In this document: positions 12,332-62,312 of the stretch, in pieces
How positions within the stretch are numbered: the first letter of the stretch is position 1
Layout of the letters: the number at the start of each line of letters is the position of its first letter
Source of the DNA: a virus
Lineage: Duplodnaviria > Heunggongvirae > Uroviricota > Caudoviricetes
IMG/VR virus record: IMGVR_UViG_3300031134_000466
Length of the DNA stretch: 64,000 bases
Reading direction: 5' to 3' (one strand)
Program-made: the position numbers and the translations under genes
The notes under the pieces: model-generated
Databases searched by the model: none
The model's input: only the letters and a program-made list of their open reading frames with translations
Told to the model about the DNA's origin: nothing

Positions 12332-13324
12332 ATGTCAGAAGAAAACAACCTCGAACCTCGTGAGCAGCAGCACCCAGCTTATGAGGCAATCAACTGGAAC
12401 AACGTCGATGAGTTCGACAACGCTGTTTGGCAGAAACTTACCAGTAACTTCTGGTTGCCAGAAAAAGTCTCTGTTTCCAACGACCGTAAAACATGGGAAA
12501 CCTTGTCTGATGCAGAAAAGAAGCTGGTTCTCCATGTCTTTACTGGTCTGACAATGCTTGACACCATTCAGGGTCGTTTCGGTGCTTTGAGTATTATGAA
12601 AGATGCAACTTCGTTGTTCGAAGAAGCTGTGTACACAAACATTGCGTTTATGGAGAATGTTCACGCTAAGAGCTACTCTTCTATCTTCTCTACTCTGTCC
12701 ACCACAAAGGACATTAACCAGTCCTTCAACTGGTCACAGCATAATGAGTTCCTTCGTAAGAAGGAAGAAATCATCATGTCCTACTACCGCGACACCGAGC
12801 ACCCTTTAGCTCCTCAGCGTCGTAAGATTGCTTCAACCCTGCTTGAATCCTTCTTGTTCTACTCAGGTTTCTACCTTCCTCTGTACATGAACTCACAGGC
12901 TAAGCTCACAAACTCAGCTGACATCATCAAGCTGATTATTCGTGACGAAGCAGTTCACGGTTTCTACATTGGTAAAAAGTACCAGGACAGCATTGAAGAA
13001 CTGGATGAGGCTACTAAAGCTGAACTCAAAGACTTCACCTACGAATTGCTTCTCGACTTGTTCGATAACGAAATTCGTTACACTCAGGACTTGTATGATG
13101 AGTTCGGTCTTACCGAAGACGTAATTGCTTTCTTGAAGTACAACGCAAACAAGGCTCTTGCTAACTTGGGCTATGAGCCTTTGTTCCCTGACCCTGAAGT
13201 ATCTGCAGCTATCACTTCGCAGCTCAACGCAGGTTCTGACACGCACGACTTCTTCAGTGGAAGTGGAGCATCCTACGTGATGACCACTCGTGAAGAGTTG
13301 GCTGAAGAGGACTGGGACTTCTAA
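12332..13324 (+). CDS. nrdF: ribonucleotide reductase small (beta) subunit, class Ib-like
   Basis: 330 aa. 'AINWN', di-iron ExxH motifs 'ENVHAKSYS' and 'RDEAVHG', C-terminal acidic tail 'EEDWDF'. Confidence 0.9.
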   Translation: MSEENNLEPREQQHPAYEAINWNNVDEFDNAVWQKLTSNFWLPEKVSVSNDRKTWETLSDAEKKLVLHVFTGLTMLDTIQGRFGALSIMKDATSLFEEAVYTNIAFMENVHAKSYSSIFSTLSTTKDINQSFNWSQHNEFLRKKEEIIMSYYRDTEHPLAPQRRKIASTLLESFLFYSGFYLPLYMNSQAKLTNSADIIKLIIRDEAVHGFYIGKKYQDSIEELDEATKAELKDFTYELLLDLFDNEIRYTQDLYDEFGLTEDVIAFLKYNANKALANLGYEPLFPDPEVSAAITSQLNAGSDTHDFFSGSGASYVMTTREELAEEDWDF

Positions 13325-13391: not shown

Positions 13392-13615
13392 TGTGTTAAC
13401 AGACCAGAAACGTATCCCATTAGCCGCAGACGCCCATCTGCTGCCCTAATACCCTTCATTCACTCAAGTGGACGGCTTACACTACCCAACCTCTTAGACG
13501 CCGTTTTAGTAAGAAACTGCTTTATAGGGTTACCGAGTTGCATTCTTCGGACCTTCCTGCTAAGGTAAGGAACATACAGTCCTTATTCGTTCCACCAGGA
13601 AGAAACAAAGCTTTT

Positions 13616-14050
13616 ATGTTTGATGAGATTGGCTCGGCGCCTCAGACCCGGTACAAGCCCCGTGCGGGCGTTGTGCAGTTCCCTGAGAAGACTGCTCTTT
13701 CCAACCGTCAGCGTTCCTACCTGGATATTGCTGTTCGCCTCGCTGAGTCCTCGGATGCAAGCTTCAAGCACGGAGCAGTTATTGTTCGTGGCGGCAGCGT
13801 TCTTGCTGTCGGAGTGAACAAGTGGAAGAATCGTGACCTTCCTCCGACTCCCCCTGATGTGTACAACCCTGACATCACTGTCCACGCTGAGATTGATGCT
13901 CTTTCCCGAGTGAAGGACGCTCGCGGAACCACTGTCTACATTGCCCGAGTCACCCGTAGCGGCGACGAGCGTTTCTCTCGCCCCTGCAACCGTTGCGAGA
14001 AGGCTCTCATCGAGGCTGGAGTCAAGCGGGTCGTCTACACGGTAGGCTAA
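13616..14050 (+). CDS. CMP/dCMP-type zinc deaminase
   Basis: 'HAEIDAL' and 'PCNRCEKAL' zinc motifs. ATG 13616 has AGGAAG upstream. The track TTG at 13538 is possible but less likely. Confidence 0.75.
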   Translation: MFDEIGSAPQTRYKPRAGVVQFPEKTALSNRQRSYLDIAVRLAESSDASFKHGAVIVRGGSVLAVGVNKWKNRDLPPTPPDVYNPDITVHAEIDALSRVKDARGTTVYIARVTRSGDERFSRPCNRCEKALIEAGVKRVVYTVG

Positions 14051-14394: not shown

Positions 14395-16512
14395 TTACAG
14401 TTCACGACGACCTGTACGCAGTTCACGAAGCATACGCTCGTAAGCATATCCTGTCATTTCAGCGTCATTGTAAGCACGGTGAGCGCCAAGGTAAGGAACA
14501 TTGTAGCGGGCAGTGAATGAAGAGAGCTTATCGTTCGGAACATCAGTCAGAAGACGACGAGACAGTTTCAAAGTGTCAAGAATTTTGATTTTCTTGTGCT
14601 TCACAGCATCAGCAAAACCAGGAACATGTGTGGACATCCAACGCTGTTCAAAAGTCTTGTTGTGAGCCATCATGATACCAACATTTGTCAGCTGGTCAAG
14701 AACAGCAGTACCTTCAGCAGGGTTCAAGAACTGACGCTTCTTCGCAATCTGAGTTTCAGTAATACCATGCACTTCACTGTTGCCTGTGCTGCGAGTCAGG
14801 AGAGCTTTCTTCGAAAGACCGTAAAGCTTGCTTGTCTTAGCTTTCTCAGTGTCATTACGAGTCAGAGTAGAGTTACGGTAGTTGGTACGAACGGATGCAC
14901 CATACTCGATGATGCTACCTGAAGTAGGCTGAGAACCGGCAGTTTCCAAATCAACACTCACATAGTCAGGAAGCGTTTCCTGCTTAGCTGCCGTGACGTA
15001 GAGGCTACGAAGCTGAGCCGCAACATAGGTTCGGTCTTTGCGATTCTCATCATCGAAGTTGCCAGCAAACTCCTGCTCAACAACCTTAGAATCAACACCA
15101 CGCATTGTTGCAACTTCAGTGAAGATTTCCTGCTTCTCTTTGTTACTCAAGCTGGAGTTCAGAGCGTTCTGAGAGAAACCACGAGCGCGGTTACGTCCTT
15201 CCCAAGTACCAGCCTTACGGGAAGCAAGCTCGGTGTTGAACTTCTTCACAGCTTCAAGGTTGCCAGCAGCTTCCTGCTCAAGCTCAGGAGTCATAGTGAA
15301 ATGGTATTCACGGTATTCACGGTCGTCAATGACAACTGCAACCATACCACGCTTGAAACCAGCAGCCTGAGCATACCAAAGAGTCTGAGCTCGGTAAGTG
15401 TCAGGAACACCATCCAAACCATCTTCAGGGTTACCCCATTTGCCAGCAACAGAAGCAGTCTTGATTTCGACAATACCGTCAGGGTTACCATCCTTGTCAG
15501 CCATCAGACCGTCAAAGTTAGCAAACTGGAACTCGTTCTCGTTGTGCTTCCAAGAAGACTTGCAGAAAGTGATGTTGTCGTCAGGGTTGTTCTGCACAAC
15601 CTGGAGGAAGATTCGCTTCTCCCAAGCGTTACCACGACCAGCCGCGCCAGCATACTCTTCGTTGTTCAGTGCCTGCTCAGCAACCTGCTCATCAGTGATG
15701 GGTTCAAGCTTGGACTGCATGATTTCTTCATAGCTGTTGTAAGCACCCTTGACTCGCTTGATGGCTCCAACATCTGAACCACCAATACCTTTCTGACGCT
15801 GCTCAAGCCATTCACGAGTACCTGACTCGAACTCAGCAGTCTTAGTGAGTTCATTCAGCGTCTCTTTGTCATACTCACGCCATTCGCCAGCTTCACGAAG
15901 ACGGTTCTCTTCAAGGTCGGCAAGGTGAGCCACAACAGGTGCTGCAACGTCTTTGTACTCGTTAATCTGACGGCGGAGGAGACTGACTTCTTCGTTGATG
16001 TCAATCATCGCAAGTTCCTTCTGACGAACATCTTCGTAAAGGAACGCAGGGTCTTCTTCCCACTTCTTCTTCAGAAGGTCACGGTCAGCTTTAGTCTCCT
16101 CAAGAAGCTGCATGTTTGCATCACGCTTCTCAAGCAGGGCAGTAAAGTCTTCAGAGTTGATACGGTCCTGGATGAAGCTTTCCATGGCTTCCTCATCACC
16201 TGATTCAATCAGGCGGGCAGCTTCAGCTTTATCCTCTTCAACGGTCTTCAGAGCTTTCTGGTGACCGTAGGAACTAACAGGAGTGTAGGTACGCTCCATA
16301 GCTTCCTTCAAAATAGACATAGCAAGCAGGCTCTCAACATCGTTTGTGTTGTTCAGCTGCTTCTCAACCAGCTCAGCATTCTTGTGCTGATGATACTGGT
16401 ACTCAGTCATGTGTTCTCCGTTTATCAGTGTGCATTTCTTCTGTGCAGGGCAACGGACCCAATCGCCTTGCCTCTTGCCTGATTGCTGTTTATGGTAGTT
16501 CTTCATGGTCAA
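14395..16512 (-). CDS. exonuclease fusion: YqaJ-like (PD-(D/E)XK) domain + DnaQ-like DEDDh 3'-5' exonuclease
   Basis: 705 aa. 'EWLEQRQKGIGGSDVGAI' (YqaJ). C-terminal 'VSVDLETAG', 'AHNKTFEQRW', 'HRAYNDAEM' (DEDDh). The N-terminal ~230 aa look coiled-coil. Confidence 0.75.
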   Translation of the reverse strand: MTMKNYHKQQSGKRQGDWVRCPAQKKCTLINGEHMTEYQYHQHKNAELVEKQLNNTNDVESLLAMSILKEAMERTYTPVSSYGHQKALKTVEEDKAEAARLIESGDEEAMESFIQDRINSEDFTALLEKRDANMQLLEETKADRDLLKKKWEEDPAFLYEDVRQKELAMIDINEEVSLLRRQINEYKDVAAPVVAHLADLEENRLREAGEWREYDKETLNELTKTAEFESGTREWLEQRQKGIGGSDVGAIKRVKGAYNSYEEIMQSKLEPITDEQVAEQALNNEEYAGAAGRGNAWEKRIFLQVVQNNPDDNITFCKSSWKHNENEFQFANFDGLMADKDGNPDGIVEIKTASVAGKWGNPEDGLDGVPDTYRAQTLWYAQAAGFKRGMVAVVIDDREYREYHFTMTPELEQEAAGNLEAVKKFNTELASRKAGTWEGRNRARGFSQNALNSSLSNKEKQEIFTEVATMRGVDSKVVEQEFAGNFDDENRKDRTYVAAQLRSLYVTAAKQETLPDYVSVDLETAGSQPTSGSIIEYGASVRTNYRNSTLTRNDTEKAKTSKLYGLSKKALLTRSTGNSEVHGITETQIAKKRQFLNPAEGTAVLDQLTNVGIMMAHNKTFEQRWMSTHVPGFADAVKHKKIKILDTLKLSRRLLTDVPNDKLSSFTARYNVPYLGAHRAYNDAEMTGYAYERMLRELRTGRREL

Positions 16513-16555: not shown

Positions 16556-17479
16556 TTAGTGAAGATGGGAGAAGTTTTTTACAGCATCAACAGAAACACC
16601 GTTGACTAACGGCTCTAACTCTTTAAGGAAAGAGTTCAGTTCACCTTCATCAGTAGCATGGAGTGTTTTTGAAGCGATTGTCAAAGCTCTACGACCAAGA
16701 AGAAGAGCTGCAAACTGATTCAAACCGTAATCACTCACTGATCTGCCCAGAAGAGTCTCATATTCTTGACGAGCAACTGTCCACAGTTCAGGACGACGCA
16801 TCCGGTGAACCAGGTGAAGATACAGATGAGCTAAATCATATTCGCGTGGAGCAGCTCTTGATTCTTCGAAGGAAGTCCAGACAACACTGTAGTCTTCTTT
16901 CATCACTAAGTTCTCTGGTGTGGCACGTCCATGACTGACAACATTGATTTCAGGTGTTGAAGAAATCATGTTGGTAACAGGCTGAATAATTACTTTGAAC
17001 AAATCCCGTAAACGGTTCTGATTCTCAGCAGTCAAATACTTGAACGAAGGAGAACCCAGCTTCTCTCCGTAGCGTAAGTAGTCATCATTGGAGCTTTCAT
17101 TCAACTGAGGATACTTCAAGCTGTTGTGGATGTAGAACAGTTCCCGTGCTGCGTGAGCTGCTTGCATGGGGTTCATGTTAGTCCCAATTGGATACAGACG
17201 TTCCCATTCCCAAGCGGACAGTACAAGAGGTAACCCTCGTGATGACCTATGGTGAACATTGTCGAATAGAGGGTTTGTACCGTAAGTGGTGTTTACTGCG
17301 AAATCAATTTCTGTTTGCAGAGGAGCTGGGTTAGTTTCTGGCCGGAGGAGCTTGACAAATACACGTTCGTTATCACTGAGAATGTGATGAGGGGAACGGT
17401 TCAAAGAGTCTAATCTCACGATACCGTAGGTGATGTAATTCTGGCTAAGAATTCGGCACACTTCGTGAACAAGATTCAT
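16556..17479 (-). CDS. APH/choline-kinase-fold phosphotransferase-like protein, catalytic motifs divergent
   Basis: 307 aa. 'VFVKL', 'VSHGRATPENLV' where HGDxxxxN is expected, and 'WTSFEES..EYDLAHLY' where iDxE..DLA is expected. Confidence 0.5.
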   Translation of the reverse strand: MNLVHEVCRILSQNYITYGIVRLDSLNRSPHHILSDNERVFVKLLRPETNPAPLQTEIDFAVNTTYGTNPLFDNVHHRSSRGLPLVLSAWEWERLYPIGTNMNPMQAAHAARELFYIHNSLKYPQLNESSNDDYLRYGEKLGSPSFKYLTAENQNRLRDLFKVIIQPVTNMISSTPEINVVSHGRATPENLVMKEDYSVVWTSFEESRAAPREYDLAHLYLHLVHRMRRPELWTVARQEYETLLGRSVSDYGLNQFAALLLGRRALTIASKTLHATDEGELNSFLKELEPLVNGVSVDAVKNFSHLH

Positions 17480-17597: not shown

Positions 17598-18269
17598 ATG
17601 ACTGATAAGAAAACCTACCCCTCCCCTTCACTCCTGGTCCTTGCTTTCCACGAAACCTACGGCCAGCCTGTTCGCACTGAACCTGTTTATGATGTTCCTG
17701 AGAAGCTTATGCGATCCGAACTGATCCTTGAAGAAGCAAGCGAGTTCTGGGACGCCAACAAAGCTAACGATTTAGTCGAAATGGCTGATGCTTTAGCTGA
17801 CCTTGTTTACGTAGCTTACGGTGCAGCAATCACCCATGGTGTCGACGTTGACGCTTCCTTCGGTGGACACAAAGAAACCCCTGCTGAGGTCTTGCGTGTT
17901 GTTCACCGCCGCCAGCGTCAGAAGATTCGTCCAATTCCAACATTGAACGTTCTTTCCCGCAACATGACTGCCTCAGGTTTGAACAAAACAGCTGTTGCTT
18001 ACGACAACTACGTTCGTCACACTCTTGAAGGTAACCCAGACCAGATTCGTGCGTTATTGACCACAATCATCTCCAGTGCTTACTTTGCAGCTTTTTCCTT
18101 AGGCATCGACTTGGATGACGTTCTGGAAGAAGTGCAGCGTTCCAACATGTCCAAGCTTGGTGAAGACGGCAAGCCAATCTACCGTGAAGATGGAAAGGTT
18201 CTCAAAGGACCAAACTTCTTCACACCTGACATTGCAGCTGTTTTGAAGCGTCAAGGTTGGAAAGGCTGA
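17598..18269 (+). CDS. MazG-like all-alpha NTP pyrophosphohydrolase
   Basis: 223 aa. 'EEASEFWDA' and 'EMADALADLVYV' metal-binding helices. C-terminal 'RSNMSKLGEDGKPIYREDGKVLKGPNF'. Confidence 0.75.
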   Translation: MTDKKTYPSPSLLVLAFHETYGQPVRTEPVYDVPEKLMRSELILEEASEFWDANKANDLVEMADALADLVYVAYGAAITHGVDVDASFGGHKETPAEVLRVVHRRQRQKIRPIPTLNVLSRNMTASGLNKTAVAYDNYVRHTLEGNPDQIRALLTTIISSAYFAAFSLGIDLDDVLEEVQRSNMSKLGEDGKPIYREDGKVLKGPNFFTPDIAAVLKRQGWKG

Positions 18270-18293: not shown

Positions 18294-18329
18294 TTTTGTC
18301 CCCCACAAGAACCTTGTGGGGGACAAAAT
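18294..18329 (+). terminator. hairpin terminator
   Basis: 16-bp arms ttttgtcccccacaag / cttgtgggggacaaaa with a 4-nt loop. Confidence 0.8.
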
Positions 18330-18429: not shown

Positions 18430-21147
18430 ATGGCCACCCTCATCGGCGTATCAGGAAAAATTGCGTCAGGTAAAGATTACTTGACTGACAAGCTTGTAAA
18501 CGAACTGAAACGTCTTGGTTTTACCATCGACTACACAGCCTTCGCTGCACCCCTGAAGCAGGAACTCAACGAAATCATCTCTCTGATTCGAGCTTTCCCT
18601 GAACAGGATGAACTGACTCTTTCTTTCTCCATCGCTCGTAATCTGGACATCAACTACGATGATGCTCTTCTGATTGCTACTAATCTGAGAACAGAAGTGC
18701 TTGCAGATGAAACTCTCAACGGTTACTCACGAACAGTCAAAATTCGTGAATCTCTTCAGTATCTTGGTACAGAGATTCGCAGGAAGCAGCGTCCTGAATA
18801 CTGGACTGACTTGTTCTTGAACTTCGTCAACAATTCAGAAACAGATTTCATTTTCGTTTCAGATGCACGTTTTCCTAATGAAATGGACACGGTTGTCGAC
18901 AATCAAGGTGTTGCTCTACGTCTTGACATTCCAGAAGAAGTTCTTGCAGAGCGTCGAAACAAGCGTGACGGCATCAAATACACTGATGAGCAGTTGAATC
19001 ATATCTCAGAAACTGCACTGGATGATTACACCAAATTTGACATGATGATTGGTGTGCAGTTCAACGAACGTGAAATCGTAGAGAATATCCTGAAAAAAGT
19101 TGAACGACTTCAGGAACTTCCTGCAAAAGCTTCTCGCGTCCTGAAAGCCAAAATCGCAGAGCATACACCTTCAGTGTCAGATAAGAAAGATGTTTACCCA
19201 GAGGTGAATTTACCTGAAGGCCAGTACAAAGTGTTGTCTTTGTTTGCAGGTGCAGGTGGATTAGATTTAGGTTTTGAGTTAGCTGGATTAGAAGCAGTTC
19301 ACGGTAAAGAAAAAGTGGACGCTGCTTACAAAGACAAAAAAGCATTTGACGAGCTCCGCAAAGAGAACCTCATTCACACGGTCTACGTAAATGACAACTT
19401 CAAAGATGCAATAGCTTCCTACCGTCAGAACTTTCCTGAAACGTTTATTGACGAACGAGATATCAAAAAAATCAGCAGCTTCCCTGATGCAGACCTTCTG
19501 TTAGGTGGATTCCCTTGCTTCCCTAAAGGAACAGGTGTAGCTACAGAGACAGGTTACAAAAACATTGAAGATGTCGAGAAAGGTGATTTTGTTCTCACTC
19601 ATGAAGGTCGTTACCGTGAAGTAACAGACACCATGACACGCAATGTGAACAAATCAGCCACTCTACATGCTTACGGTTCTCTTCCTTTGGTCTCAACGGT
19701 GAATCATCCTTACTGGGTGAAAGAAACTGTCGATTCTGAACCTAAATGGGTTCATGCTGAGAACATTCAGCCAGGTTGGTTTGTGTCTCATCCAATCAGC
19801 ACATTCAGTACAGATGAAGTAACCGAAAAAGAAGCCAAGTTTGCTTACTTAGCCGGCGTCTTCGCTCAGTGTGGTACAAAAACTTTGAACGACGAGCACA
19901 AGCCAAGCTATCTCACTCCTTACAATGATGAGGAGTTCCTGGCTTTGCTGGCTGAAATTGATGCTGTCTGTTCAAAAGAAGGCAAAAACGTCATCGTCCA
20001 CAGTGAACAGCTGAACAAGATGATGAAATTGTTCGGAACTACCAAATGGAACAAAGTCATTCCTGAAGAGGTCCACCAGAAACCACGAGCTTGGCAGAAA
20101 GCTTTCCTTGACGGCTTCCTGTTCCACAACTCTGACCAGGAAGTGCACAGCAAGAACTTGGCTGTTGGCGTGGCTCGAATTATTCGTAGTTTGAACCCTA
20201 CACAGGATGTTATCGTGTCCTCACCCAAATACAGTTCCTGGATTGTAACTGCAACTGACACTACCGTAGCTCATCATGATGACAACTATGTATGGGTTCC
20301 TGTGGAGCGTTTGCAAGTAAGAAACGAAATGGGAGTACTTCCTGTTTACGATATTACTGTAGCCGAAGACGAATCATTCGTAGCAGATGGATTTGTAGTT
20401 CACAACTGCCCTGGCTTCTCAGCAGCAGGTCTTCGCATGTTAGATGACCCTCGCAACTTCCTGTACCTGCATTTCGTACGAGCTGTTGTTGACGCTCAAC
20501 CAAAGATTTTCGTAGCAGAAAACGTAAAAGGTCTACTCACTCATGGTCAAGGTGAAGCTTTCAACCAGATAGTCGAAGACTTTGCAGCAGCAGGTTACAC
20601 CATCTACTACAAGCTGATGAAAGCAATTCAGCATGGTGTACCTCAGATGAGAGAGCGATTGATTATTGTTGGTGTGCGAAACGACATTGATTTTGAATAC
20701 CAGCATCCTGCTGCCACTCATGGTGAAGGTCTACTTCCATACAAAACTCAAAGAGACGCTTTCTACGATTTGAGGGACCTGAACGATGAACACTACGAAG
20801 GAGACTTCTCTTCTCGCTACCGTTCCAGAAGGTTCAAACTGGACTGGGATGTACCGTCAAAGACCATTTTGGCAACAGGGCGGCACCTGCCTTTGCACCC
20901 TGACGGAGTGCCTCAGGAGAAGCTGGAGCAGGACTTGTGGAGTTTAGACGCTGCAGACCGTAGATTCACTGTAAGAGAAGCTGCACGAATCCAGACATTC
21001 CCTGACTGGTATGATTTCGTGACAACCTCTCGCGGAACAACCAACACAGTCCTGGAGAAACAGTACCGTCAGATAGGTAACGCTGTTCCTGTCGAACTGG
21101 GACGAGTTGTTGCTGAACCTATTGTTCAGTTCCTGAAAAGTCTGTAA
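18430..21147 (+). CDS. dNMP-kinase-like P-loop domain fused to DNA (cytosine-5) methyltransferase, interrupted by an intein
   Basis: 905 aa. N-terminal 'GVSGKIASGKDY' and 'VSDARFPNE'. MTase motif I 'LFAGAGGLDLGF', IV 'GGFP|C..', VI 'ENVKGL', X 'GNAVPV'. Confidence 0.85.
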   Translation: MATLIGVSGKIASGKDYLTDKLVNELKRLGFTIDYTAFAAPLKQELNEIISLIRAFPEQDELTLSFSIARNLDINYDDALLIATNLRTEVLADETLNGYSRTVKIRESLQYLGTEIRRKQRPEYWTDLFLNFVNNSETDFIFVSDARFPNEMDTVVDNQGVALRLDIPEEVLAERRNKRDGIKYTDEQLNHISETALDDYTKFDMMIGVQFNEREIVENILKKVERLQELPAKASRVLKAKIAEHTPSVSDKKDVYPEVNLPEGQYKVLSLFAGAGGLDLGFELAGLEAVHGKEKVDAAYKDKKAFDELRKENLIHTVYVNDNFKDAIASYRQNFPETFIDERDIKKISSFPDADLLLGGFPCFPKGTGVATETGYKNIEDVEKGDFVLTHEGRYREVTDTMTRNVNKSATLHAYGSLPLVSTVNHPYWVKETVDSEPKWVHAENIQPGWFVSHPISTFSTDEVTEKEAKFAYLAGVFAQCGTKTLNDEHKPSYLTPYNDEEFLALLAEIDAVCSKEGKNVIVHSEQLNKMMKLFGTTKWNKVIPEEVHQKPRAWQKAFLDGFLFHNSDQEVHSKNLAVGVARIIRSLNPTQDVIVSSPKYSSWIVTATDTTVAHHDDNYVWVPVERLQVRNEMGVLPVYDITVAEDESFVADGFVVHNCPGFSAAGLRMLDDPRNFLYLHFVRAVVDAQPKIFVAENVKGLLTHGQGEAFNQIVEDFAAAGYTIYYKLMKAIQHGVPQMRERLIIVGVRNDIDFEYQHPAATHGEGLLPYKTQRDAFYDLRDLNDEHYEGDFSSRYRSRRFKLDWDVPSKTILATGRHLPLHPDGVPQEKLEQDLWSLDAADRRFTVREAARIQTFPDWYDFVTTSRGTTNTVLEKQYRQIGNAVPVELGRVVAEPIVQFLKSL
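19516..20406 (+). mobile_element. class 1 intein (297 aa) with degenerate LAGLIDADG-type homing-endonuclease insert
   Basis: Starts 'CFPKGTGVATETG' and has block B 'TVNHPYWV'. 'YLAGVFAQCG' and 'FLDGFLFHNSD' are LAGLIDADG-like. Ends 'VYDITVAEDESFVADGFVVHN' followed by the +1 Cys of 'CPGFSAAG'. Confidence 0.85.
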
Positions 21148-23433: not shown

Positions 23434-24246
23434 ATGTGCAAACGCAAACCATACCCTCGTTGCAGCTACCATGCTCGCATCAAACTTGAAGCTGCAGAAA
23501 AGTCTGGTGATCTTGAACGCATCAAGCTTGCAAGAAGGAACTATTTCACTTCATTAGCTGGTATTGCTGACCTCAAAGCTCAGGGTAAAGATGCATTAGC
23601 TGCAAAATATGAGACTCGTAGAGCAAATCTCATTGCTCAAGCTGAACGTGAGACTAACCTCCGCAAGACACCCCTGGTTTTGGCGTTGGATGTAGACAAC
23701 ACCAGTGGTGACTTCACAGAATCCATTCGTAACCATGTCATGAAGACACAAGGACTTACTCCTGAACAGGCTGAAACACTTCTTCCTAGCCCTCCAACTC
23801 ACTACTCTTTCGTAGACTCAGGCTGGTTCACTGACGTTAACTCATTCCTGGATGCTTTCCATTCAGCGGAAGAGAATGGTGTTTACTCCAAGATGAAAGC
23901 TTTTGACGGAGTAAGCAAGACTCTTCGCACTTTGGTCAGTAATCGTGACGTTGAAGTTCGTGTTGTGACGGCCCGTGGTAACAGATGGAATGAAGAGACC
24001 CGTCAGTGGTTGCGTCGTCATCGTATTCCTTTCACTTCCATCACTCACACTGAGGACAAAGAGAAAGTCCCAGGTATCGATGTGTACATTGATGACTCTG
24101 ACAAGCAGATTAACACTCTGCAGAAGAACGGTAAGACAGTTATTGCGTTCGAGAATGCATACAACGCAACTGTTCCTTCTAAGTATCGTGTAAAGAAGTG
24201 GAAAGAAGTGCCGGCAGTTCTGAAACTCATCGCACAAGCCAAATAA
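23434..24246 (+). CDS. N-terminal C-x7-C-x2-H module fused to HAD-type 5'(3')-deoxyribonucleotidase
   Basis: 270 aa. 'MCKRKPYPRCSYHA' then a helical region, then HAD motif I 'LALDVDNTSGDF' and 'VYIDDSDKQ'. Confidence 0.7.
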   Translation: MCKRKPYPRCSYHARIKLEAAEKSGDLERIKLARRNYFTSLAGIADLKAQGKDALAAKYETRRANLIAQAERETNLRKTPLVLALDVDNTSGDFTESIRNHVMKTQGLTPEQAETLLPSPPTHYSFVDSGWFTDVNSFLDAFHSAEENGVYSKMKAFDGVSKTLRTLVSNRDVEVRVVTARGNRWNEETRQWLRRHRIPFTSITHTEDKEKVPGIDVYIDDSDKQINTLQKNGKTVIAFENAYNATVPSKYRVKKWKEVPAVLKLIAQAK

Positions 24247-35979: not shown

Positions 35980-36441
35980 TTAATACTCTGTACGCAGCTG
36001 ATACTCGCCCCAAGTCGTGAAAGGCTGAACAGAATTGTCCAGGATAATTCGTTCAGCAACATCACCAGATGCAAGCTTCTCATAAAATGCTGCATCGTCA
36101 AAACCAGCATTCGCCGCATCATAACGGTCAGCAGAAAACACAATACGGTCAACACGAGACCATAAAGCAGCACCTAAACACATAGGGCAAGGTTCACAGG
36201 ATGAATAAAGAACACATCCTTCCAGGTTGAACACTTTAGCCTTGGCACAAGCAGCCCTAATAGCATTCACTTCCGCATGAGCGGTAGGGTCAATCGTGGT
36301 GGTGACAGAGTTTCCCGCAGCAACCGTGCTGCCGTTAGGGAAAAGGATTACAGCCCCAAAAGGTCCACCATTGCCGCTTTCCACGTTCTTTACAGCTGTA
36401 TCAATAGCAAGCTTAAGATAGTCAGCGTCGTTCATATTCAA
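35980..36441 (-). CDS. CDA-fold nucleobase/nucleoside deaminase, GuaD (guanine deaminase)-like
   Basis: 153 aa. 'GGPFGAVI', 'DPTAHAEVNAIR', 'CEPCPMCLGA', 'GFDD'. Confidence 0.7.
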   Translation of the reverse strand: MNMNDADYLKLAIDTAVKNVESGNGGPFGAVILFPNGSTVAAGNSVTTTIDPTAHAEVNAIRAACAKAKVFNLEGCVLYSSCEPCPMCLGAALWSRVDRIVFSADRYDAANAGFDDAAFYEKLASGDVAERIILDNSVQPFTTWGEYQLRTEY

Positions 36442-39276: not shown

Positions 39277-39328
39277 ATTATGAAAGCCGACCCGACAGAA
39301 ATTCTTTGTCAGGTCGGCTTTCATAATT
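39276..39328. terminator. bidirectional hairpin
   Basis: 22-nt arms aattatgaaagccgacccgaca / tgtcaggtcggctttcataatt (1 mismatch). Confidence 0.8.
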
Positions 39329-40449
39329 CAGTCAGCAGTTTTTCCGTTCAAGTTCCAGAATGGCTTCTCAAACTCAGGCTGAATCATTTTCCAGATGATG
39401 TCAGAGATTTTCTTCTCAGACCTGGTATCAAAATGACCTCCGCTGTGACGAGAGAATAACAAACCAGTAATGCGTTTGTCTTCTTTCTGTACAGCTGCAG
39501 CGTAGTCCTTCTGAGTGTATCCTTCAGGAAGTTCAGAAAGAATACGGTTGTAAGTTTCCTCAACTGTTGCACGCAATTCAGCATGCTCTGCAAGTAGTCG
39601 GTCACGAGTTGTTTCGACATACTCAACGAACTCATCAGGGAGACCAACAATCCATGAAGTGAAGTCACCGTCAGCTACAAGCAGCTCCCAGATGCGACGC
39701 GAAGAAGCACCTGTGATGACACGGTGAAGCTGAACGTAGTCATCCTGTTTCACTTTCACTCGAACATCACTATCCAGGAAGTGAACAACAACGCCTTCTT
39801 TGTTCTCACGACCAGGAGCGGCCAAAGCTTCAGTAAGGCTGTTGTATTCAAACTGCTCAACCTTCAACCAAGTCCATTCATCAACCTGTGATGCTGGTAC
39901 AGAGCGACCTGTTGCTGTGTTCACTCGGGCAATCAAGATGAGGTCATCCAAATCACCGTAGTTAACAACGATACGGTTTGTAGGGTAGATGATTTCCCAG
40001 ATGTAAGTTTCACCAGCAAGTGGCTCCCATTTTCCGTCGTACAGCTCCTGGTAACGTGCTGTGGCATGCAGAGCCTGCTCAGAGCTGAATGAACCTCGTG
40101 TGGAGATGTTCAGTCGACCAGTTTCAGGGTTTACATATGAAACACCCATAGAACCATCTGCTTTGTCTGTGACAACGATAGGTCCAGTCAGTGCATCCTG
40201 AGGAACATCTGGTTCGCCGTGGTTAAAGAACTTACCAAGAGGGCGGGAGACAATCTCCTGGGTGGAACCGTCAACGATAAGTCCTCGTGAAGCTAATGTT
40301 GCAGCGTTCCAGGCTCGGTCAAACTGGCATACCTGTGAGTAGTCAAAGATAGCCAGGTCAAGCGTAGGGTGAACCTGACGATTGATGTGCTTGTTCTGGA
40401 ATTCAGCTGCCCAAAGTTCAGCAGGAGCGATATCGTAAATGTGTACCAT
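39328..40449 (-). CDS. ATP-dependent RNA ligase, paralog A
   Basis: 373 aa. Motif I 'TDKADGSM', 'WEIIYPTNRIVVNY', IV 'NKEGVVVH', V 'VRVKVK'. Confidence 0.75.
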   Translation of the reverse strand: MVHIYDIAPAELWAAEFQNKHINRQVHPTLDLAIFDYSQVCQFDRAWNAATLASRGLIVDGSTQEIVSRPLGKFFNHGEPDVPQDALTGPIVVTDKADGSMGVSYVNPETGRLNISTRGSFSSEQALHATARYQELYDGKWEPLAGETYIWEIIYPTNRIVVNYGDLDDLILIARVNTATGRSVPASQVDEWTWLKVEQFEYNSLTEALAAPGRENKEGVVVHFLDSDVRVKVKQDDYVQLHRVITGASSRRIWELLVADGDFTSWIVGLPDEFVEYVETTRDRLLAEHAELRATVEETYNRILSELPEGYTQKDYAAAVQKEDKRITGLLFSRHSGGHFDTRSEKKISDIIWKMIQPEFEKPFWNLNGKTAD

Positions 40450-41293: not shown

Positions 41294-42706
41294 ATGCCAA
41301 TTGGTCAAAAAATTGTAGGAGTAGCTGTAGCAGCTACAGTTTCATTAAGTGCGGTAGCTTTTGTGGCTTCTCCAGCACTTGCTGATGAGGCAGCTCCTAC
41401 GACAACACAAGACGTTCCTACGGAAGTAGAAACTGGGACTGAGGGAGTTGCTCCAGCAGCTGACCCTGTTGAGGAAGAAGTACCTGCTCCTGAGGTTGCA
41501 GTACCAGAAGAGACTGAACCTGAAGTAGTTGTTCCATCTGAAGAAGCACCAGTAGAAGAAGTACCTACTGAAGAAGCACCTGTTGAAGAAGTTCCTGTCG
41601 AAGAGGTCCCTGCAGAGGAAAATGCTTTGGTAGCAACAACATTTGCTTTGACTTTTGGTGGTGACACATCAACTGTTCCTGAAAACCTGACACTTGAAGT
41701 TCACTATACTTCTTTGGTGAATGATGAAGTGCAGGATAATGTTGTTTACCTAACCCGCGATGTCCCTCCTACTGCCATTGACATCCCTGAAGGTTCTACA
41801 GTTCAGGTTTCAGTAACTGGTTTACCTGACATCGAAAACACAACACTAAACCCAGTTGTTCTGCTCAATGGGAATCCTTTGCCTGCTGATGGTGTTACAT
41901 TAGTGTCTGGTGAAGTGTATGATTTTTCTGTAGCTATTGATGCAGTAACAGAAAACCCTGCACCTTCAGACGCTCCTGCTATTCAGCAGGATGAAGCTCT
42001 TCCTGTTGATGTAGAAAACCTTATTTCTGTAAATGCTGCAGTTGCTTTCCCTGGTGACACTATAACTGTTTCTGCTTCAAGCGTTGCTACTCCTGAATCT
42101 TGGGTTTCAGTATGGCTTCATTCCACTCCTGTGCTTCTCGCTGGTTGGGTTCAGACTGACGTGAATGGAAACATTGATGTCACAATTCCAGCAGGTACCG
42201 AAACTGGTGAACACCGTATTGTTGTGTCTGACGCAGACAACAACATTGTAGGTTGGACAAGCATTCTTGTTGTCAACCAGGATGATGAAGTTATCGTTCC
42301 TGGAGAAGACCCTGAAACCCCTGTAGACCCTGAAACGCCTACAGACCCTACCCTTCCTGTGGACCCTACAACTCCTACTGACCCAGAAGTGCCAGTTACT
42401 CCTACAAACCCAGATGCAGGAGTAACTCCTGAGACTGAACCAGAAACAACTCCTCGTGACCCTTCTTCTGGCGGAGTATCCATCATTCCTGAGGAAGAGT
42501 TCAACACTGGAGGTTACGACAATGATGAGTTGGGTAACGTAACAGACCGTGGTGACCGCTCAGACATTAACACCAGAGCTTTGGCTTACACTGGTTCTGA
42601 CTCCAACTCCACGGTGTTCCTCACCTTCATGGGTGGTCTCATGTTGATTGGTGGTTTCGTCCTCCGCAGACTTCCTCGTCTGCGTGCTGCACGTCGCAAT
42701 AGCTGA
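41294..42706 (+). CDS. cell-wall-anchored surface protein with LAxTG sorting signal
   Basis: 470 aa. Signal peptide ending 'SPALA|DE', acidic Pro/Glu/Val repeats, Pro/Thr repeats, and C-terminal 'LAYTG' + TM segment + 'RRLPRLRAARR'. Confidence 0.85.
   Translation: MPIGQKIVGVAVAATVSLSAVAFVASPALADEAAPTTTQDVPTEVETGTEGVAPAADPVEEEVPAPEVAVPEETEPEVVVPSEEAPVEEVPTEEAPVEEVPVEEVPAEENALVATTFALTFGGDTSTVPENLTLEVHYTSLVNDEVQDNVVYLTRDVPPTAIDIPEGSTVQVSVTGLPDIENTTLNPVVLLNGNPLPADGVTLVSGEVYDFSVAIDAVTENPAPSDAPAIQQDEALPVDVENLISVNAAVAFPGDTITVSASSVATPESWVSVWLHSTPVLLAGWVQTDVNGNIDVTIPAGTETGEHRIVVSDADNNIVGWTSILVVNQDDEVIVPGEDPETPVDPETPTDPTLPVDPTTPTDPEVPVTPTNPDAGVTPETEPETTPRDPSSGGVSIIPEEEFNTGGYDNDELGNVTDRGDRSDINTRALAYTGSDSNSTVFLTFMGGLMLIGGFVLRRLPRLRAARRNS
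41468..41624 (+). repeat. low-complexity (E/P/V) repeat region in the surface protein
   Basis: 'EEVPAPEVAVPEETEPEVVVPSEEAPVEEVPTEEAPVEEVPVEEVPAEE'. Confidence 0.7.
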
Positions 42707-42792: not shown

Positions 42793-44685
<1,893 letters not shown>

Positions 44686-44757: not shown

Positions 44758-44799
44758 AAGTAGAAAGGCCCTGACTAAAGAGTCAGGGCCTTTCTACTT
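44758..44799 (-). terminator. hairpin terminator after 44798..45349
   Basis: 19-bp arms aagtagaaaggccctgact / agtcagggcctttctactt. Confidence 0.8.
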
Positions 44800-45349
44800 A
44801 GTTCTTTTTAGCTATGTATTCCCAGGTGATGATACCTTTTTCACAAGTCAGAACATAATGGCTATTGTACCATTCTCCACCTGCGTTGTAGTTATATTCA
44901 TGATAACCAGTTGTGTATCCTTTTGCTACCCATGTGTCTGCAGATGGAGGAACATCTTGATGAGGTCGAGCGTCAGAAGGCTGGAAGCTTTGTACCTGAT
45001 TGATTCGTAACTTCAATTCCTTATGAAGTTCTTCGAACTTGATAGCGACAGACTTACGTCCCTGTTCATCTTCATTCACATACAGAGAAGTATCACTTTC
45101 GTTCCAACCATTGCTGTCACCTAACATGCTCAGGCGGTAAGAAATAACCACAGTAACCTGAAGTTCTGCTCCTGTGCGTTGAGCTTCAAAGATTTCATCT
45201 AAAGTCAATGCAGTGACTACTCGTGTAGCTTCAGGAACTGGGATAAGCTTAGCCCATTCGCCATGAGCGTAATGAGCAAGTTCTCTTTTAGGTAATGTGC
45301 CGAGGACATCAGCTATTTTAGCTGGTCGTTTGTTCGTTTCTTTAGCCAT
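44798..45349 (-). CDS. hypothetical protein
   Basis: 183 aa from ATG 45349 ('MAKETNKRP..'). The track's longer N-terminus is hydrophobic read-through of the promoter region. Confidence 0.55.
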   Translation of the reverse strand: MAKETNKRPAKIADVLGTLPKRELAHYAHGEWAKLIPVPEATRVVTALTLDEIFEAQRTGAELQVTVVISYRLSMLGDSNGWNESDTSLYVNEDEQGRKSVAIKFEELHKELKLRINQVQSFQPSDARPHQDVPPSADTWVAKGYTTGYHEYNYNAGGEWYNSHYVLTCEKGIITWEYIAKKN

Positions 45350-45511
45350 TAGGTGTTTCAACCATTCTGTCTTGGTATCCAAGTATATCAAACAAATTAG
45401 GTAAAAGGCATAAATAGTGTGGAACAAAGAAATGGCATAGTTCGGCCTGGGTCATCACCATTGTGTTACAATTGACCTGTACAACACCAATAAAGCGTAA
45501 CAGGAGTTACC

Positions 45512-46171
45512 ATGGACAACATTAAAGTAGAAGCTAACGGTAAATGGGTCAAGCTGGTAGAAAAAGCAGCATATGATGCACCTCCTACGTGGCATTTGGA
45601 AACCCCAGAGGGCGAGTTCCATATTTCTGTACCTATGCAGTCCACTCAGTTTGAATTGGTAAAACAATACCAGCGTGTATATGACAGTCAGAAAGATATA
45701 GGAATTCCTATTGCTGACGACTTAATGGTTGAGTTAGTTGAATCCGACTGGGGTTTTGTCGGTAACGAAGATGATGTATGGAAGTTCATCTTTACTTCTG
45801 TTGGTTATGACCAGAAGAATCTGATTGAGGACAAAGCAGAGCTGAAAGAACTGGTTCAGGATGCAGCTGAGCAGTTAGAAATCCTCAAACATGATGTTGA
45901 AGCCTCTGCTATCAGCTTCGACCCTGAAGTTGACACTAACACTGGCGATTTCTTTGAGTTTACATCTGCAACATTGAGTGATATGACAAAGCTACTTGCT
46001 GAAACTAAAAAGTCTTTGAAGCGTTACAAGGTACTTTTAGAAGCAGCTGAAAGATGGGTAGCTAAAGAATCGATGGGCCTGAACTGGACTAACGAGACAT
46101 TCCTTAGTAACTATGGTGAAACTCCTGAAGCTAAAAGGCTAATGGCTACGTACGAAGCACACCAAAAGTAG
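45512..46171 (+). CDS. hypothetical protein
   Basis: 219-aa acidic ORF with a CAGGAG RBS. Confidence 0.6.
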   Translation: MDNIKVEANGKWVKLVEKAAYDAPPTWHLETPEGEFHISVPMQSTQFELVKQYQRVYDSQKDIGIPIADDLMVELVESDWGFVGNEDDVWKFIFTSVGYDQKNLIEDKAELKELVQDAAEQLEILKHDVEASAISFDPEVDTNTGDFFEFTSATLSDMTKLLAETKKSLKRYKVLLEAAERWVAKESMGLNWTNETFLSNYGETPEAKRLMATYEAHQK

Positions 46172-49519: not shown

Positions 49520-50176
49520 ATGAGAATAGTAGTAGCTGATTGTTCAGTCATTTACACAGGAAGAGGAGACACCCGTCTTCCCCGAGCAGTCCGAGCGATC
49601 ATTGTCAAAGATGATGGTTCAATCTCAGTGCATAACGACAAAAGTAACAAACCTTTGAACTATATGGGTAAAGGTAACGAGCTTTCAGAAGTTGAGCTGG
49701 AAGATTGTAAACTATGGTTCTTTGACACAAGGCAAGAAAGTCTCCGCATTACTTTACATGAAGTTATTTCTGACACTGATTTCCTCCTTGATCGAAACGA
49801 TGAAGGACTGATCCGTGACGGCACAGAGAAGCAGCTGCAGGCTTGGTTAGCAGAGAACCCAGAAGCATTAGGTGAAGGCTATACTTTCGTTCAAAGAGAA
49901 TATCAGACAGGTGCAGGAGCTGTTGATTTGTTAGTCACTGACCCTGAAGGTAACCCTGTGGCGGTAGAAGTGAAACGAGTGGCCATGATTAACAGTGTGA
50001 GCCAGACACAACGTTATGTTGAGTCGATGAAAGAGGACCCTGAGTTTGCCAATACCACTGGCATTATCGCCGCTTTAGACATTCGACCTAACACTGTGAA
50101 GTTAGCGGACAAAAAGAAAATCCGCTGTGTCACTTTACCAACATGGTGGCGTGACCCAGCGGATACTTCAATGTAA
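49520..50176 (+). CDS. nucS: endonuclease NucS (EndoMS)
   Basis: 218 aa. 'MRIVVADCSVIYTGRGDTRLP', 'GAGAVDLLVTDPEGNPVAVEVKR', 'QTQRYVESM'. Confidence 0.9.
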   Translation: MRIVVADCSVIYTGRGDTRLPRAVRAIIVKDDGSISVHNDKSNKPLNYMGKGNELSEVELEDCKLWFFDTRQESLRITLHEVISDTDFLLDRNDEGLIRDGTEKQLQAWLAENPEALGEGYTFVQREYQTGAGAVDLLVTDPEGNPVAVEVKRVAMINSVSQTQRYVESMKEDPEFANTTGIIAALDIRPNTVKLADKKKIRCVTLPTWWRDPADTSM

Positions 50177-50744: not shown

Positions 50745-50774
50745 TTTGACAGCTGGCTGGGTTTCATGGTAAGT
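50745..50774 (+). promoter_or_regulatory. -35 TTGACA / 18 nt / -10 TAAGTT (TGGTAAGTT)
   Basis: Upstream of the Pnkp gene. Argues against the track's TTG 50774 start. Confidence 0.55.
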
Positions 50775-50800
50775 TGGAGTATCTTAAGTTAGGAAACAAA

Positions 50801-51706
50801 ATGTCACAGATAATGCGGATTCACCGTGGAGTGCAAGGCTCTGGTAAATCCACAGAAGCCATCCGTTGGGTGAACCAGGACCCGTTAAACCGTGCCCGTG
50901 TGAACCGTGATGACATTCGTCTCAGCCAGTTCGGCTCCTACGAGCTTCCTCAGGAACTCGAAGTTGCTGTTACCAAAGTAGAGCATGCCATCATCACCGC
51001 ACTTCTTGCTGCACGCAAAAGTGTTGTTGTTGACAATGTGAACCTGAAAGCCAAGTACGTTAAAGAGTACCTGCTTATTGCGGAGAAAGCCAACGTACCT
51101 GTTGTGCATCAGGACTTCCCTGTGGAGTTGGAGACAGCTCTTGCTCGTAACGCTGCTCGTGACCGTAAAGTCCCTGCACATGTGATTGAGACAACATTCA
51201 AGCGTTACATTCAGAGTGGCAAGTTCCCTCCGTTCCCCGTACTTGACTACGAAGCCGCTGCAGCAGGAATCTATGTTCCTGATGAGACTCTGCCTAAAGC
51301 TATCCTTTTGGATGTTGACGGCACAGCCATGAAGATGGGTTCACATCGTGGACCGTTTGACTGGCACAAAGTCATTGATGACGAGCCTAACCCGCCTGTT
51401 GTTGAAACAGTAAAAGCTTTGCATGCTCAGGGCTACAAAGTTGTTGTCATGTCTGGTCGTGATGAAGTCTGCAAAACAGACACGTTACTTTCTCTGGAAG
51501 TAGCTGGTGTTCCTGTGGATGAAATCTACATGAGACCCCACAACGATTACCGTAAAGACAACATCATCAAGCGTGAACTTTTTGATGCTCACATTCGGGA
51601 GCGTTTCAACATCCTGTTAGCTTTGGATGACCGGAACCAGGTTGTGGACGCTTACCGTCGTGAGCTGGGTCTTCCTGTCTTTCAGGTTGACTACGGAGAC
51701 TTCTAA
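50801..51706 (+). CDS. polynucleotide kinase-phosphatase (Pnkp): P-loop 5'-kinase + HAD 3'-phosphatase
   Basis: 'HRGVQGSGKST' and 'LLDVDGT', 'VVMSGRDE', 'ALDDRNQVV'. AGGAAA RBS. Confidence 0.8.
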   Translation: MSQIMRIHRGVQGSGKSTEAIRWVNQDPLNRARVNRDDIRLSQFGSYELPQELEVAVTKVEHAIITALLAARKSVVVDNVNLKAKYVKEYLLIAEKANVPVVHQDFPVELETALARNAARDRKVPAHVIETTFKRYIQSGKFPPFPVLDYEAAAAGIYVPDETLPKAILLDVDGTAMKMGSHRGPFDWHKVIDDEPNPPVVETVKALHAQGYKVVVMSGRDEVCKTDTLLSLEVAGVPVDEIYMRPHNDYRKDNIIKRELFDAHIRERFNILLALDDRNQVVDAYRRELGLPVFQVDYGDF

Positions 51707-55746: not shown

Positions 55747-56412
55747 ATGAAGAACACATACGGAATTCTCGGCGGATATGGGGCGGTAGCCACCCTACAT
55801 CTCCAGCAGCTGCTCGTGAAGCGAGTCCTCAGCACTGGACAGTACGCTGATATTGCCTTCCCTCGTATGGTAATTTCCAATCTGCCTGAAGACATCATCA
55901 ATGCTGAAGGACATATCAGCAGCCTTGGTAGCCTGCGGACTGAACTTGGTAAAACAGCTCCTCTATTCCAAGGAGCCACAGATGTTTATGTCATTTGTAA
56001 CACCTTCCATGTCGAAGAAGAGTTCATGCAGCGAGTCTTCGCTAACAAACTACATTCTGTTCCGGCTTTAACCAGTCAAGCTGTCGTAGATGCTGGATAC
56101 TCCAAACCTCTTATCGTAGGTTCCAAGCTGACTTCTCAGGATAACCTGTACAGTCATACAGCTTACACCTCAACTAACATGTTTGCGGATGAGCTAATCA
56201 CTGCTGGAATGAAGTACCAGACATCTCACTCTCAGCTGGCAGATGTCATAGCTGCTGCCAAACAGGCTAGCTCAGACTGCATTGTTTTAGGTTGCACAGA
56301 TTTGTCCGTGATGGCTGACACTCTCCGAACCATGACTGCACTTCCCGTAATCGACTCCGTTGAAGCAGTCGCCAACCATATTTACAACTCCCATACGAAA
56401 GATGAATCGTGA
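55747..56412 (+). CDS. Asp/Glu/hydantoin racemase-superfamily enzyme (two-Cys type)
   Basis: 221 aa. 'YGILGGYGAVAT', 'VYVICNTFH', 'IVLGCTDLS', 'PVIDSV'. Confidence 0.75.
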   Translation: MKNTYGILGGYGAVATLHLQQLLVKRVLSTGQYADIAFPRMVISNLPEDIINAEGHISSLGSLRTELGKTAPLFQGATDVYVICNTFHVEEEFMQRVFANKLHSVPALTSQAVVDAGYSKPLIVGSKLTSQDNLYSHTAYTSTNMFADELITAGMKYQTSHSQLADVIAAAKQASSDCIVLGCTDLSVMADTLRTMTALPVIDSVEAVANHIYNSHTKDES

Positions 56413-62238: not shown

Positions 62239-62268
62239 TCACAAAAACGTGCTTTTTCGTCAATATGA

Positions 62269-62277
62269 CGATATACT
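62269..62277 (+). promoter_or_regulatory. -10 element (CGATATACT)
   Basis: 35-nt leader with an AAGGAAGG RBS before ATG 62313. Confidence 0.5.
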
Positions 62278-62312
62278 GTAATAAGAATGGTCTAAGGAAG
62301 GAAACCCGTATC

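Follow-up and report, generated by a model that had tools for sequence, protein, structure and literature searches.

Does joining a nucleotide-pool kinase to a cytosine methylase in one polypeptide open a new route to modified DNA? The question is raised by an open reading frame (ORF) of 905 codons plus stop at 18430..21147 (+ strand) of a stretch of viral DNA, IMG/VR record IMGVR_UViG_3300031134_000466 (Caudoviricetes), which was analyzed over 64,000 nucleotides and is referred to here as the window. A preliminary description of the window had read this ORF as a deoxynucleoside monophosphate (dNMP) kinase fused to a complete cytosine-C5 methyltransferase, and had proposed that the two act in a coupled route to DNA containing 5-methylcytosine (5mC).

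That description is partly supported: its domain identities and the fusion are correct, and the coupled 5mC pathway is without support. On present evidence, no new route to modified DNA is revealed. The ORF is organized as kinase, linker, N-terminal part of the methylase, intein and C-terminal part of the methylase. The intein, which had been overlooked, splits methylase motif IV, so that methylase activity would hinge on protein splicing. The three modules all come from known families, namely dNMP kinases of the T4 type, C5 methylases of the HaeIII type and inteins inserted at the catalytic Pro-Cys of such methylases; the novelty lies in their union in a single polypeptide. We think it likely that the product is a self-maturing bifunctional protein, in which an independent kinase for deoxynucleoside triphosphate (dNTP) supply is combined with an orphan, protective methylase matured by splicing.

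The fusion gene

The fusion is genuine. The same 905 codons are present in copies that are 98% and 95% identical and come from other assemblies (L114 and L115), and a 52% identical protein of 609 amino acids (aa) from a 696-kb contig (P0002) has the same kinase, linker and methylase. The linker (aa 231-268; 19120..19233, + strand) includes a conserved segment, KAKIAEHTPSVSDKKDVYP at 19144-19200, that is common to the window protein, P0002 and a further relative, P0014; the shared segment indicates a single origin of the fusion.

Selection was measured with the Nei-Gojobori method by comparing the window with its 98% and 95% relatives (synonymous divergence, dS, 0.16-0.49). The ratio of nonsynonymous to synonymous divergence (dN/dS) is 0.06-0.09 for the kinase, 0.06-0.12 for the N part of the methylase, 0.03-0.04 for the intein and 0.00-0.01 for the C part of the methylase; when the intein is divided into three sub-regions, the values are 0.02-0.05 in all three. 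Because all modules are under strong purifying selection, none is a pseudogene. For the methylase in particular, that possibility was considered and rejected on the dN/dS values.

The combination is also rare. When 1.84 billion representative proteins were searched exhaustively with HMMER, 3,256 relatives of the kinase were returned at E <= 0.001, and among the 150 best of these the kinase-methylase fusion occurs only in the window lineage. Other long kinase proteins scanned in the same set of 150 are fusions with NT5C (P0034 and P0097) or with thymidylate kinase (P0119), or consist of a kinase plus extensions without an assigned family (P0084, P0108 and P0127). The NT5C and thymidylate kinase fusions contain the same kinase domain as the window protein, but their partners are nucleotide-pool enzymes rather than a DNA methyltransferase. 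A scan of GTDB genomes found 22 kinase relatives, the best with 35% identity on a partial match and none above 31% over the whole domain. A scan of IMG/VR found 199, of which the best 80 were used, the highest identity there being 39% for a partial match and ~32% when the whole domain is aligned. There is no fusion among the kinase ORFs recovered from these 22 GTDB and 80 IMG/VR loci; all are free-standing and at most 315 aa long. A literature search combining kinase, cytosine methyltransferase, fusion and phage returned no paper on such a fusion, and the locus has no match at the DNA level in 50,697 phage records.

The kinase domain

The N-terminal domain (aa 1-230; 18430..19119, + strand) was assigned with PHROG, Pfam and hhalign. 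It matches phrog_139, ‘deoxynucleoside monophosphate kinase’, across aa 1-230 (E 7.7e-27) and Pfam PF21448 (DNMK) with 30.6 bits (cut-off 27.1), the latter match being confined to aa 95-158. A weaker Pfam match is to the related phosphomevalonate kinase (PMK) family. When a profile made by aligning the window domain with 62 relatives was compared with T4 gp1, hhalign reported a probability of 97.7% and E 1.4e-12 over 198 columns; the matched segments are the P-loop, ‘LGTE/D’, ‘YW’, ‘D-x-R...EMD’ and ‘H-I-S/T-E’.

Both strings quoted in the preliminary description are located in this one ORF, on the + strand: GVSGKIASGKDY at aa 6-17 (18445..18480) and ‘VSDARFPNE’ at aa 143-151 (18856..18882), aligning with ‘SGVKRSGKD’ and ‘PDTRQDHE’ of T4 gp1, respectively. 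The P-loop pattern G-x4-G-K-[DST] is found in the window protein as ‘SGKIASGKD’ (aa 8-16), opposite the T4 ‘SGVKRSGKD’. Eight residues are invariant in the 63-sequence alignment (G9, K15, R117, R118, D145, R147, E151 and E194), all of them present in the window protein, and G14 of the P-loop is nearly invariant. The earlier reading of aa ~1-230 as a dNMP kinase is thus backed by PHROG 139 and PF21448, and it held in the profile comparison with T4 gp1.

These similarities would place the domain in the branch of P-loop nucleoside monophosphate kinases that holds T4 gp1 and animal PMK, and genomic context together with the PHROG assignment point to a dNMP kinase. T4 gp1 itself (PDB 1DEK; PF21448; PHROG 139) is a free-standing protein of 241 aa, whereas the window domain is the N-terminus of a 905-aa precursor. 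The substrates of T4 gp1 are dTMP, dGMP and hydroxymethyl-dCMP (HM-dCMP), the monophosphates of thymidine, deoxyguanosine and hydroxymethylated deoxycytidine; its database record states that it acts on HM-dCMP and not on dCMP. The partners differ as well: no match to a hydroxymethylase or dCMP methylase was found when 69 window ORFs (most of those >=100 aa) were scanned against Pfam.

The methylase and its likely target

The remainder of the ORF matches C5 DNA methyltransferases (PF00145, E 5.6e-60; TIGR00675, E 6e-53) in two pieces. The N-extein (aa 269-362; 19234..19515, + strand), defined by Pfam and alignments, extends from motif I, LSLFAGAGGLDLGF, as far as ‘GGFP’, which forms the first half of motif IV. 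The C-extein (aa 660-905; 20407..21144, + strand), defined by PF00145 and an alignment with M.HaeIII, contains the catalytic Cys660 (‘CPGFS’), ENV (motif VI), QMRER (motif VIII), the target-recognition domain, ‘RIQTFPD’ (motif IX) and ‘GNAVP’ (motif X). Splicing the sequence in silico gives a predicted product of 608 aa in which motifs I (FxGxG), IV (PC), VI, VIII, IX and X are all in canonical order. In the unspliced precursor, motif IV is divided between P362 and C660. The fusion with a C5 methylase had thus been correctly recognized, but the enzyme is not complete in the precursor, in which 297 aa of intein split motif IV.

The best solved relative of the spliced methylase is M.HaeIII (1DCT; E 7.5e-43), and the alignment continues through the target-recognition domain between motifs VIII and IX, where the window segment SKTILATGRHLPLHP is aligned with PAFTVQASGRQCQLHP of M.HaeIII. 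The nearest free-standing relative is a methylase of 454 aa (45% identity) on an Enterococcus-associated contig; its stop codon overlaps the beginning of the next gene, which encodes an endonuclease of the NgoPII family (PF09521, E 8e-99). An extra insertion of ~25 aa between motifs I and II of the window methylase is also present in this relative. Because the target-recognition domain aligns with that of M.HaeIII and the nearest relative is paired with an NgoPII-type endonuclease, the window protein classes as a site-specific DNA methylase of the HaeIII/NgoPII kind rather than an enzyme acting on nucleotides. The earlier suggestion of a nucleotide-level methylase is at odds with the end-to-end alignment to M.HaeIII, target-recognition domain included. 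The fused methylase of phage P1, Dmt, is among the tblastn matches to the methylase part.

The target is probably GGCC, the site recognized by both HaeIII and NgoPII. There are 46 GGCC sites in the 64-kb window, with an observed/expected ratio (O/E) of 0.57; sparse, motif-bound 5mC is therefore to be expected. No endonuclease adjoins the fusion gene, whose flanks are a MazG-like gene and an opposite-strand signal peptidase gene abutting the fusion-gene stop codon, so the methylase is an orphan. In summary form, the enzyme resembles the M.HaeIII/M.NgoPII type (PF00145; 1DCT) in having all conserved motifs in the same order and a HaeIII-like target-recognition domain. It differs in being an orphan, in its N-terminal kinase and conserved linker, and in the intein in motif IV.

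The intein

The intein (297 aa, aa 363-659; 19516..20406, + strand) was recognized by matches to Hint_2, Intein_splicing and TIGR01443, the last a C-terminal intein signature at aa 638-660 with 36.2 bits (cut-off 15.6). Its exact boundaries are given by P0002, which lacks precisely aa 363-659: where the window protein reads ‘GGFP|CFPKGTG...FVVHN|CPGFSAAG’, P0002 reads ‘GGFP|CPGFSAAG’. All residues expected for class-1 splicing are present, namely C363 (Cys1), block B ‘TVNH’ (aa 423-426), H658-N659 and C660 (+1). The +1 cysteine of the intein is at the same time the catalytic nucleophile of methylase motif IV. With the catalytic loop split and the nucleophile serving as the +1 residue, the methylase is expected to be inactive before splicing.

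The LAGLIDADG-like motifs of the intein are degenerate, reading ‘GVFAQCGT’ and ‘GFLFHNSD’ against ‘GRYVADGH’ and ‘GYMSGDGC’ in related methylase inteins, so that both catalytic acidic residues are replaced (D->C and D->N). Pfam has no LAGLIDADG match in the 905-aa ORF. The endonuclease of the intein is probably inactive.

Unrelated phage cytosine methylases, among them gp43 of Erwinia phage Yoloswag and the metagenomic proteins P0006, P0007, P0009 and P0012, carry homologous inteins (24-28% identity) at this very Pro|Cys site. These have the same HINT plus LAGLIDADG architecture; the window intein differs from other phage methylase inteins in its replaced acidic residues, in the purifying selection acting along its whole length and in its host, a kinase fusion. 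Yoloswag gp43 (L113 1381-3489) is annotated solely as ‘modification methylase NgoFVII’, and its intein likewise has degenerate LAGLIDADG motifs. With tblastn, further homologous inteins were found inside genes annotated as cytosine methylases in Lactobacillus phage Nyseid, in several E. coli phages of ~350 kb and in Pseudomonas phage Lana, these matches being placed at the level of the gene rather than of the insertion site; 48 Erwinia and 24 Mycobacterium phage records also match, at the level of the record. Some caution is thus advisable in using deposited annotations, as phage genomes label intein-bearing cytosine methylase genes as plain methylases or hypothetical proteins.

Methylases of actinophages have been described as carrying an intein with a conserved insertion site, the class of methylase not being stated in the part of that report available here (Gosselin et al. 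2023, PMC9957025); the window intein is thus a further example of an already known kind. A literature search for natural inteins in C5 methylases, judged by titles and abstracts, returned only papers on enzyme characterization or engineering.

Loss of the methylase in related lineages

The syntenic site, with the kinase gene between the MazG-like gene and the signal peptidase gene, can be followed in relatives of the window (for P0014, P0015, L119 and L121, the syntenic position is assumed). Several architectures are found there. P0002 has kinase and methylase without the intein. In P0014 (415 aa), the kinase, conserved linker and methylase motif I, LFSGAGGLDLGFELAG, are followed by the C-terminal part of an ABC-type ATPase; it is either a further stage in the decay of the fusion or a chimera created during assembly. 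In P0003, P0004 and P0005, the kinase leads directly into the intein, after which comes a stop codon; methylase sequence is missing from both sides of the intein. Such kinase-intein loci are syntenic with window 18430-21147 at L110 58-1668, L109 7169-8857, L108 10001-11662 and L116-L118 5001-6659. Finally, L119, L120, L121 and P0015 have the kinase alone.

The intein remnants differ in how much of the splicing apparatus they keep. P0004, ‘...KPRN|CFPAG...IVHN|CS*’, retains Cys1, His-Asn and Cys+1. P0003 (‘...NLS|RFPKG...VVHCC*’) and P0005 (‘...LSA|GFPKG...YFALS*’) have lost the splicing residues while their ~300-aa ORF is intact. In the P0005 group, dN/dS is 0.11-0.48 for the remnant versus 0-0.10 for the kinase, a relaxed constraint on the remnant.

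Architectures are interleaved in a neighbor-joining tree of the kinase. P0004 pairs with the stand-alone L120 (bootstrap 98%), P0003 pairs with the stand-alone L121 (79%), and P0002 and P0014 group with the stand-alone P0015 (90%). The kinase is always retained and the methylase has been lost several times. Since the methylase is truncated or lost within the same lineage while the kinase stays, the kinase is independent of the methylase, which argues against an obligatory kinase-methylase pathway. The set of loci also provides a natural decay series for a fused module and its intein: intact fusion, fusion with intein, kinase with intein only, and kinase alone.

A separate observation concerns the P0005 lineage, in which the C5 methylase has been lost: at L108 4409-5845 (- strand), between the dCMP deaminase and exonuclease genes, there is an N6-adenine methylase of 478 aa (N6_Mtase/Eco57I-type) that the window does not have. 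Its presence suggests turnover of protective methylases.

Proposed function and alternatives

In the scheme that we favor, the precursor would excise its 297-aa class-1 intein by an N-S acyl shift at Cys363, trans-thioesterification onto Cys660 and cyclization of Asn659, joining Pro362 to Cys660 and restoring motif IV as ‘GGFPCPGFS’. The kinase of the 608-aa product would convert dNMP + ATP to the deoxynucleoside diphosphate (dNDP) + ADP and feed dNTP supply, alongside a DR2231-like MazG pyrophosphohydrolase, a dCMP deaminase, the R2 subunit of ribonucleotide reductase (RNR) and an NT5C-type deoxyribonucleotidase. The methylase, dependent on S-adenosylmethionine, would modify the element's own DNA at a short recognition site, probably GGCC; protection from restriction is the most plausible purpose. 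The two activities would not be metabolically coupled; the benefit of the fusion would most likely be co-expression, and tethering of the methylase to the dNTP-synthesis or replication machinery is a possible, speculative addition.

The coupled pathway of the preliminary description would require more of the fusion: an obligatory route to 5mC-rich DNA, with a methylase acting at the level of the pool and a kinase channelling 5-methyl-dCMP towards 5-methyl-dCTP, or else a kinase that protects the pool. Both domains are indeed on a single polypeptide under purifying selection, T4-like pool genes (MazG-like, dCMP deaminase, RNR and NT5C) are close by, and T4 gp1, the prototype of the family, is annotated for a modified dCMP. 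Yet the methylase has the form of a canonical DNA enzyme with a target-recognition domain of the M.HaeIII kind, its nearest relative is one half of a restriction-modification pair of the NgoPII type, and the methylase has repeatedly been lost while the kinase was kept. Fully 5mC-substituted phage DNA, as in phage XP12, is made via a thymidylate-synthase-like dCMP methylase, and no such enzyme was found among the 69 window ORFs scanned. With DNA-type target recognition, restriction-modification ancestry and loss of the methylase alone all against it, we regard the coupled pathway as very improbable. An opposite view takes the methylase half as a decaying relic, with an intein that no longer splices or a methylase without activity, so that the kinase alone is of importance. 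It would fit the degenerate homing endonuclease motifs and the sister lineages, in which all stages of methylase loss can be seen at this locus. In the window lineage, though, dN/dS is 0.00-0.12 for the methylase halves (at dS 0.3-0.5) and 0.03-0.04 for the intein, and the catalytic motifs and splicing residues are all intact; a relic is accordingly quite improbable.

It is improbable, too, that the N-terminal domain is some other P-loop small-molecule kinase, for example a PMK-like one, or a nucleotide-binding regulator of the methylase, given the hhalign match to T4 gp1 (97.7% over 198 columns, key segments aligned), the agreement of PHROG 139 with Pfam DNMK, the surrounding genes of nucleotide metabolism and the fusion of other family members to NT5C and thymidylate kinase. 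Because the kinase persists alone where the methylase is gone, it is not a mere regulator of the methylase. More has to be said for a purposeful fusion, in which the kinase docks the methylase on a dNTP-synthesizing or replisome complex, DNA is methylated at the fork, and splicing is a timing or redox switch on the catalytic cysteine. T4 gp1 is described as part of a dNTP-synthetase complex; the fusion and its conserved linker segment persist between lineages that are 52% identical; and the intein's +1 nucleophile is the catalytic cysteine of the methylase. Against this, the fusion is restricted to one small lineage and easily lost, and same-site inteins also occur in methylases that are not fused, so that we consider a purposeful fusion unlikely. 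A more elaborate form, a little less likely again, has the kinase anchoring the methylase to the dNTP-synthesis or replication machinery, the intein, with its strongly conserved yet catalytically degenerate LAGLIDADG-like domain, acting as a timing, redox or DNA-sensing switch, and the sister kinase-intein proteins representing a domesticated module. If the methylase were anchored in this way, newly made DNA would be methylated during synthesis. The locus offers a testable case for asking if a DNA methylase gains anything from being tied to an enzyme of the nucleotide pool.

Several points weigh against our own preference for two independent activities joined for co-expression. That strong selection has kept the fusion in two lineages sharing only 52% identity could reflect a real functional advantage. 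The catalytically degenerate, endonuclease-like part of the intein is as constrained as the enzymes (dN/dS 0.02-0.04), and a plain ‘selfish element’ picture leaves this constraint unexplained. Splicing, the substrate range of the kinase and the specificity of the methylase are all assigned by homology. An anti-restriction role is natural if the carrier is a phage, for which our preference (see below) is modest. Structure prediction does not discriminate: a full-length AlphaFold model of P0002 has a mean predicted local distance difference test score (pLDDT) of 70 and a predicted template modeling score (pTM) of 0.49, and its methylase half, based on a shallow alignment, is mostly below 50. With that half so poor, the model says nothing on contacts between the domains, and the low pLDDT of the linker is uninformative for the same reason.

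Neighboring genes and DNA features

Genes for nucleotide metabolism surround the fusion gene, and those named in the preliminary description are present. The RNR small subunit (NrdF/R2; PF00268, E 2e-84) is at 12332..13324, a dCMP/cytidine-type deaminase (PF00383, E 2.4e-13) at 13538..14050 and a MazG/PRA-PH-like, all-alpha NTP pyrophosphohydrolase (PF01503, E 5.5e-18) at 17598..18269, all on the + strand. The MazG-like gene is directly upstream of the kinase gene in every related locus, and its product has PDB sequence matches to DR2231. Downstream, at 23434..24246 (+ strand), is an NT5C-type 5'(3')-deoxyribonucleotidase (PF06941, E 2.6e-17), of the family that is fused to the same kinase family in other organisms (P0034 and P0097). 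The Pfam scan of 69 window ORFs gave no match to ThyA, ThyX or dCMP hydroxymethylase; the missing thymidylate-synthase-like enzyme is weak evidence, because the window shows 64 kb of a 0.7-0.9 Mb genome.

On the other side of the MazG-like gene are two genes on the - strand, which adjoin it in all related loci examined (L001-L005, L108 and L109). One encodes a 705-aa exonuclease with YqaJ and RNase T domains behind an N-terminal extension of ~210 aa (14395-16512), and the other a conserved protein of 307 aa (16556-17479) without a match in Pfam or among PDB sequences.

The MazG-like and fusion genes are separated by 160 nt, which contain, at 18294..18328 (+ strand), an inverted repeat that was read from the sequence: its arms pair perfectly over 16 bp around a loop of 3 nt (TTTTGTCCCCCACAAG aac CTTGTGGGGGACAAAA). 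It may be a terminator or attenuator; a consensus terminator scan did not call this hairpin. Across the window, consensus scans found fewer promoter-like sites than in shuffled sequence and about equal numbers of terminator-like sites.

Palindromes of 4 bp are strongly avoided in the window relative to Markov expectation. CTAG is the extreme case (O/E 0.06; 9 observed, 139 expected), followed by GATC (0.22), GCGC (0.27), TTAA (0.38), CGCG (0.48) and CCGG (0.51). This avoidance may point to a genome under heavy restriction pressure.

The carrier

Relatives of the window sit on contigs of 696,453, 788,683, 878,612 and 883,042 bp. The window lineage has no close relatives in GTDB species representatives or IMG/VR; the 705-aa exonuclease and a PARP-like protein were also without close relatives in IMG/VR. 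Neither a tRNA nor an Rfam match was found in the 64-kb window, which counts among its phage-like features. Other content of a phage-like kind comprises a solitary DnaK, two T4-type RNA ligases, PNKP, the YqaJ-RNase T exonuclease, RNase H, NucS, a WGR-PARP, several ADP-ribosyltransferases, two synthases of nicotinamide adenine dinucleotide (NAD), an NMNAT-like protein and many family-less ORFs. Cell-like content comprises a Wzy-type ligase, signal peptidase I, permeases and a racemase. We lean to a moderate degree towards a very large phage as the carrier, rather than a bacterium with a tiny genome. If the contigs are viral, their size is similar to or above that of the biggest phage genome so far published, 841.7 kb (BF3, which has 55% GC and is of a different lineage; bioRxiv 10.1101/2025.01.14.633092). 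If they are cellular, the carrier is an uncatalogued bacterium with a tiny genome.

Some other gene sets in the window can be mentioned briefly. Genes that consume or make NAD are clustered at 26372-27676, 28539-29579, 30500-31465, 51758-52729 (- strand), 56409-57374, 58101-59624 and 62265-63158; they encode the WGR-PARP, two clear ADP-ribosyltransferases and a weak one, the two NAD synthases and the cytidylyltransferase-like (NMNAT-like) protein. An RNA-repair set at 39328-40449 (- strand), 54122-55363 (+ strand) and 50774-51706 (+ strand) consists of two T4 Rnl1-type RNA ligases and PNKP (AAA_33 + HAD_PNKP); such a set is typical of T4-like and jumbo phages. The DnaK is full length (42826-44685) and 58-60% identical to Firmicutes-type DnaK; GrpE and DnaJ were not found beside it, the flanking ORFs (41294-42706, 44798-45427 and 45512-46171) having no Pfam match. 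Finally, a NucS-type mismatch endonuclease and a second cytidine/dCMP-type deaminase are encoded at 49520-50176 and 35980-36441 (- strand); the NucS family is known mainly from Actinobacteria and Archaea.

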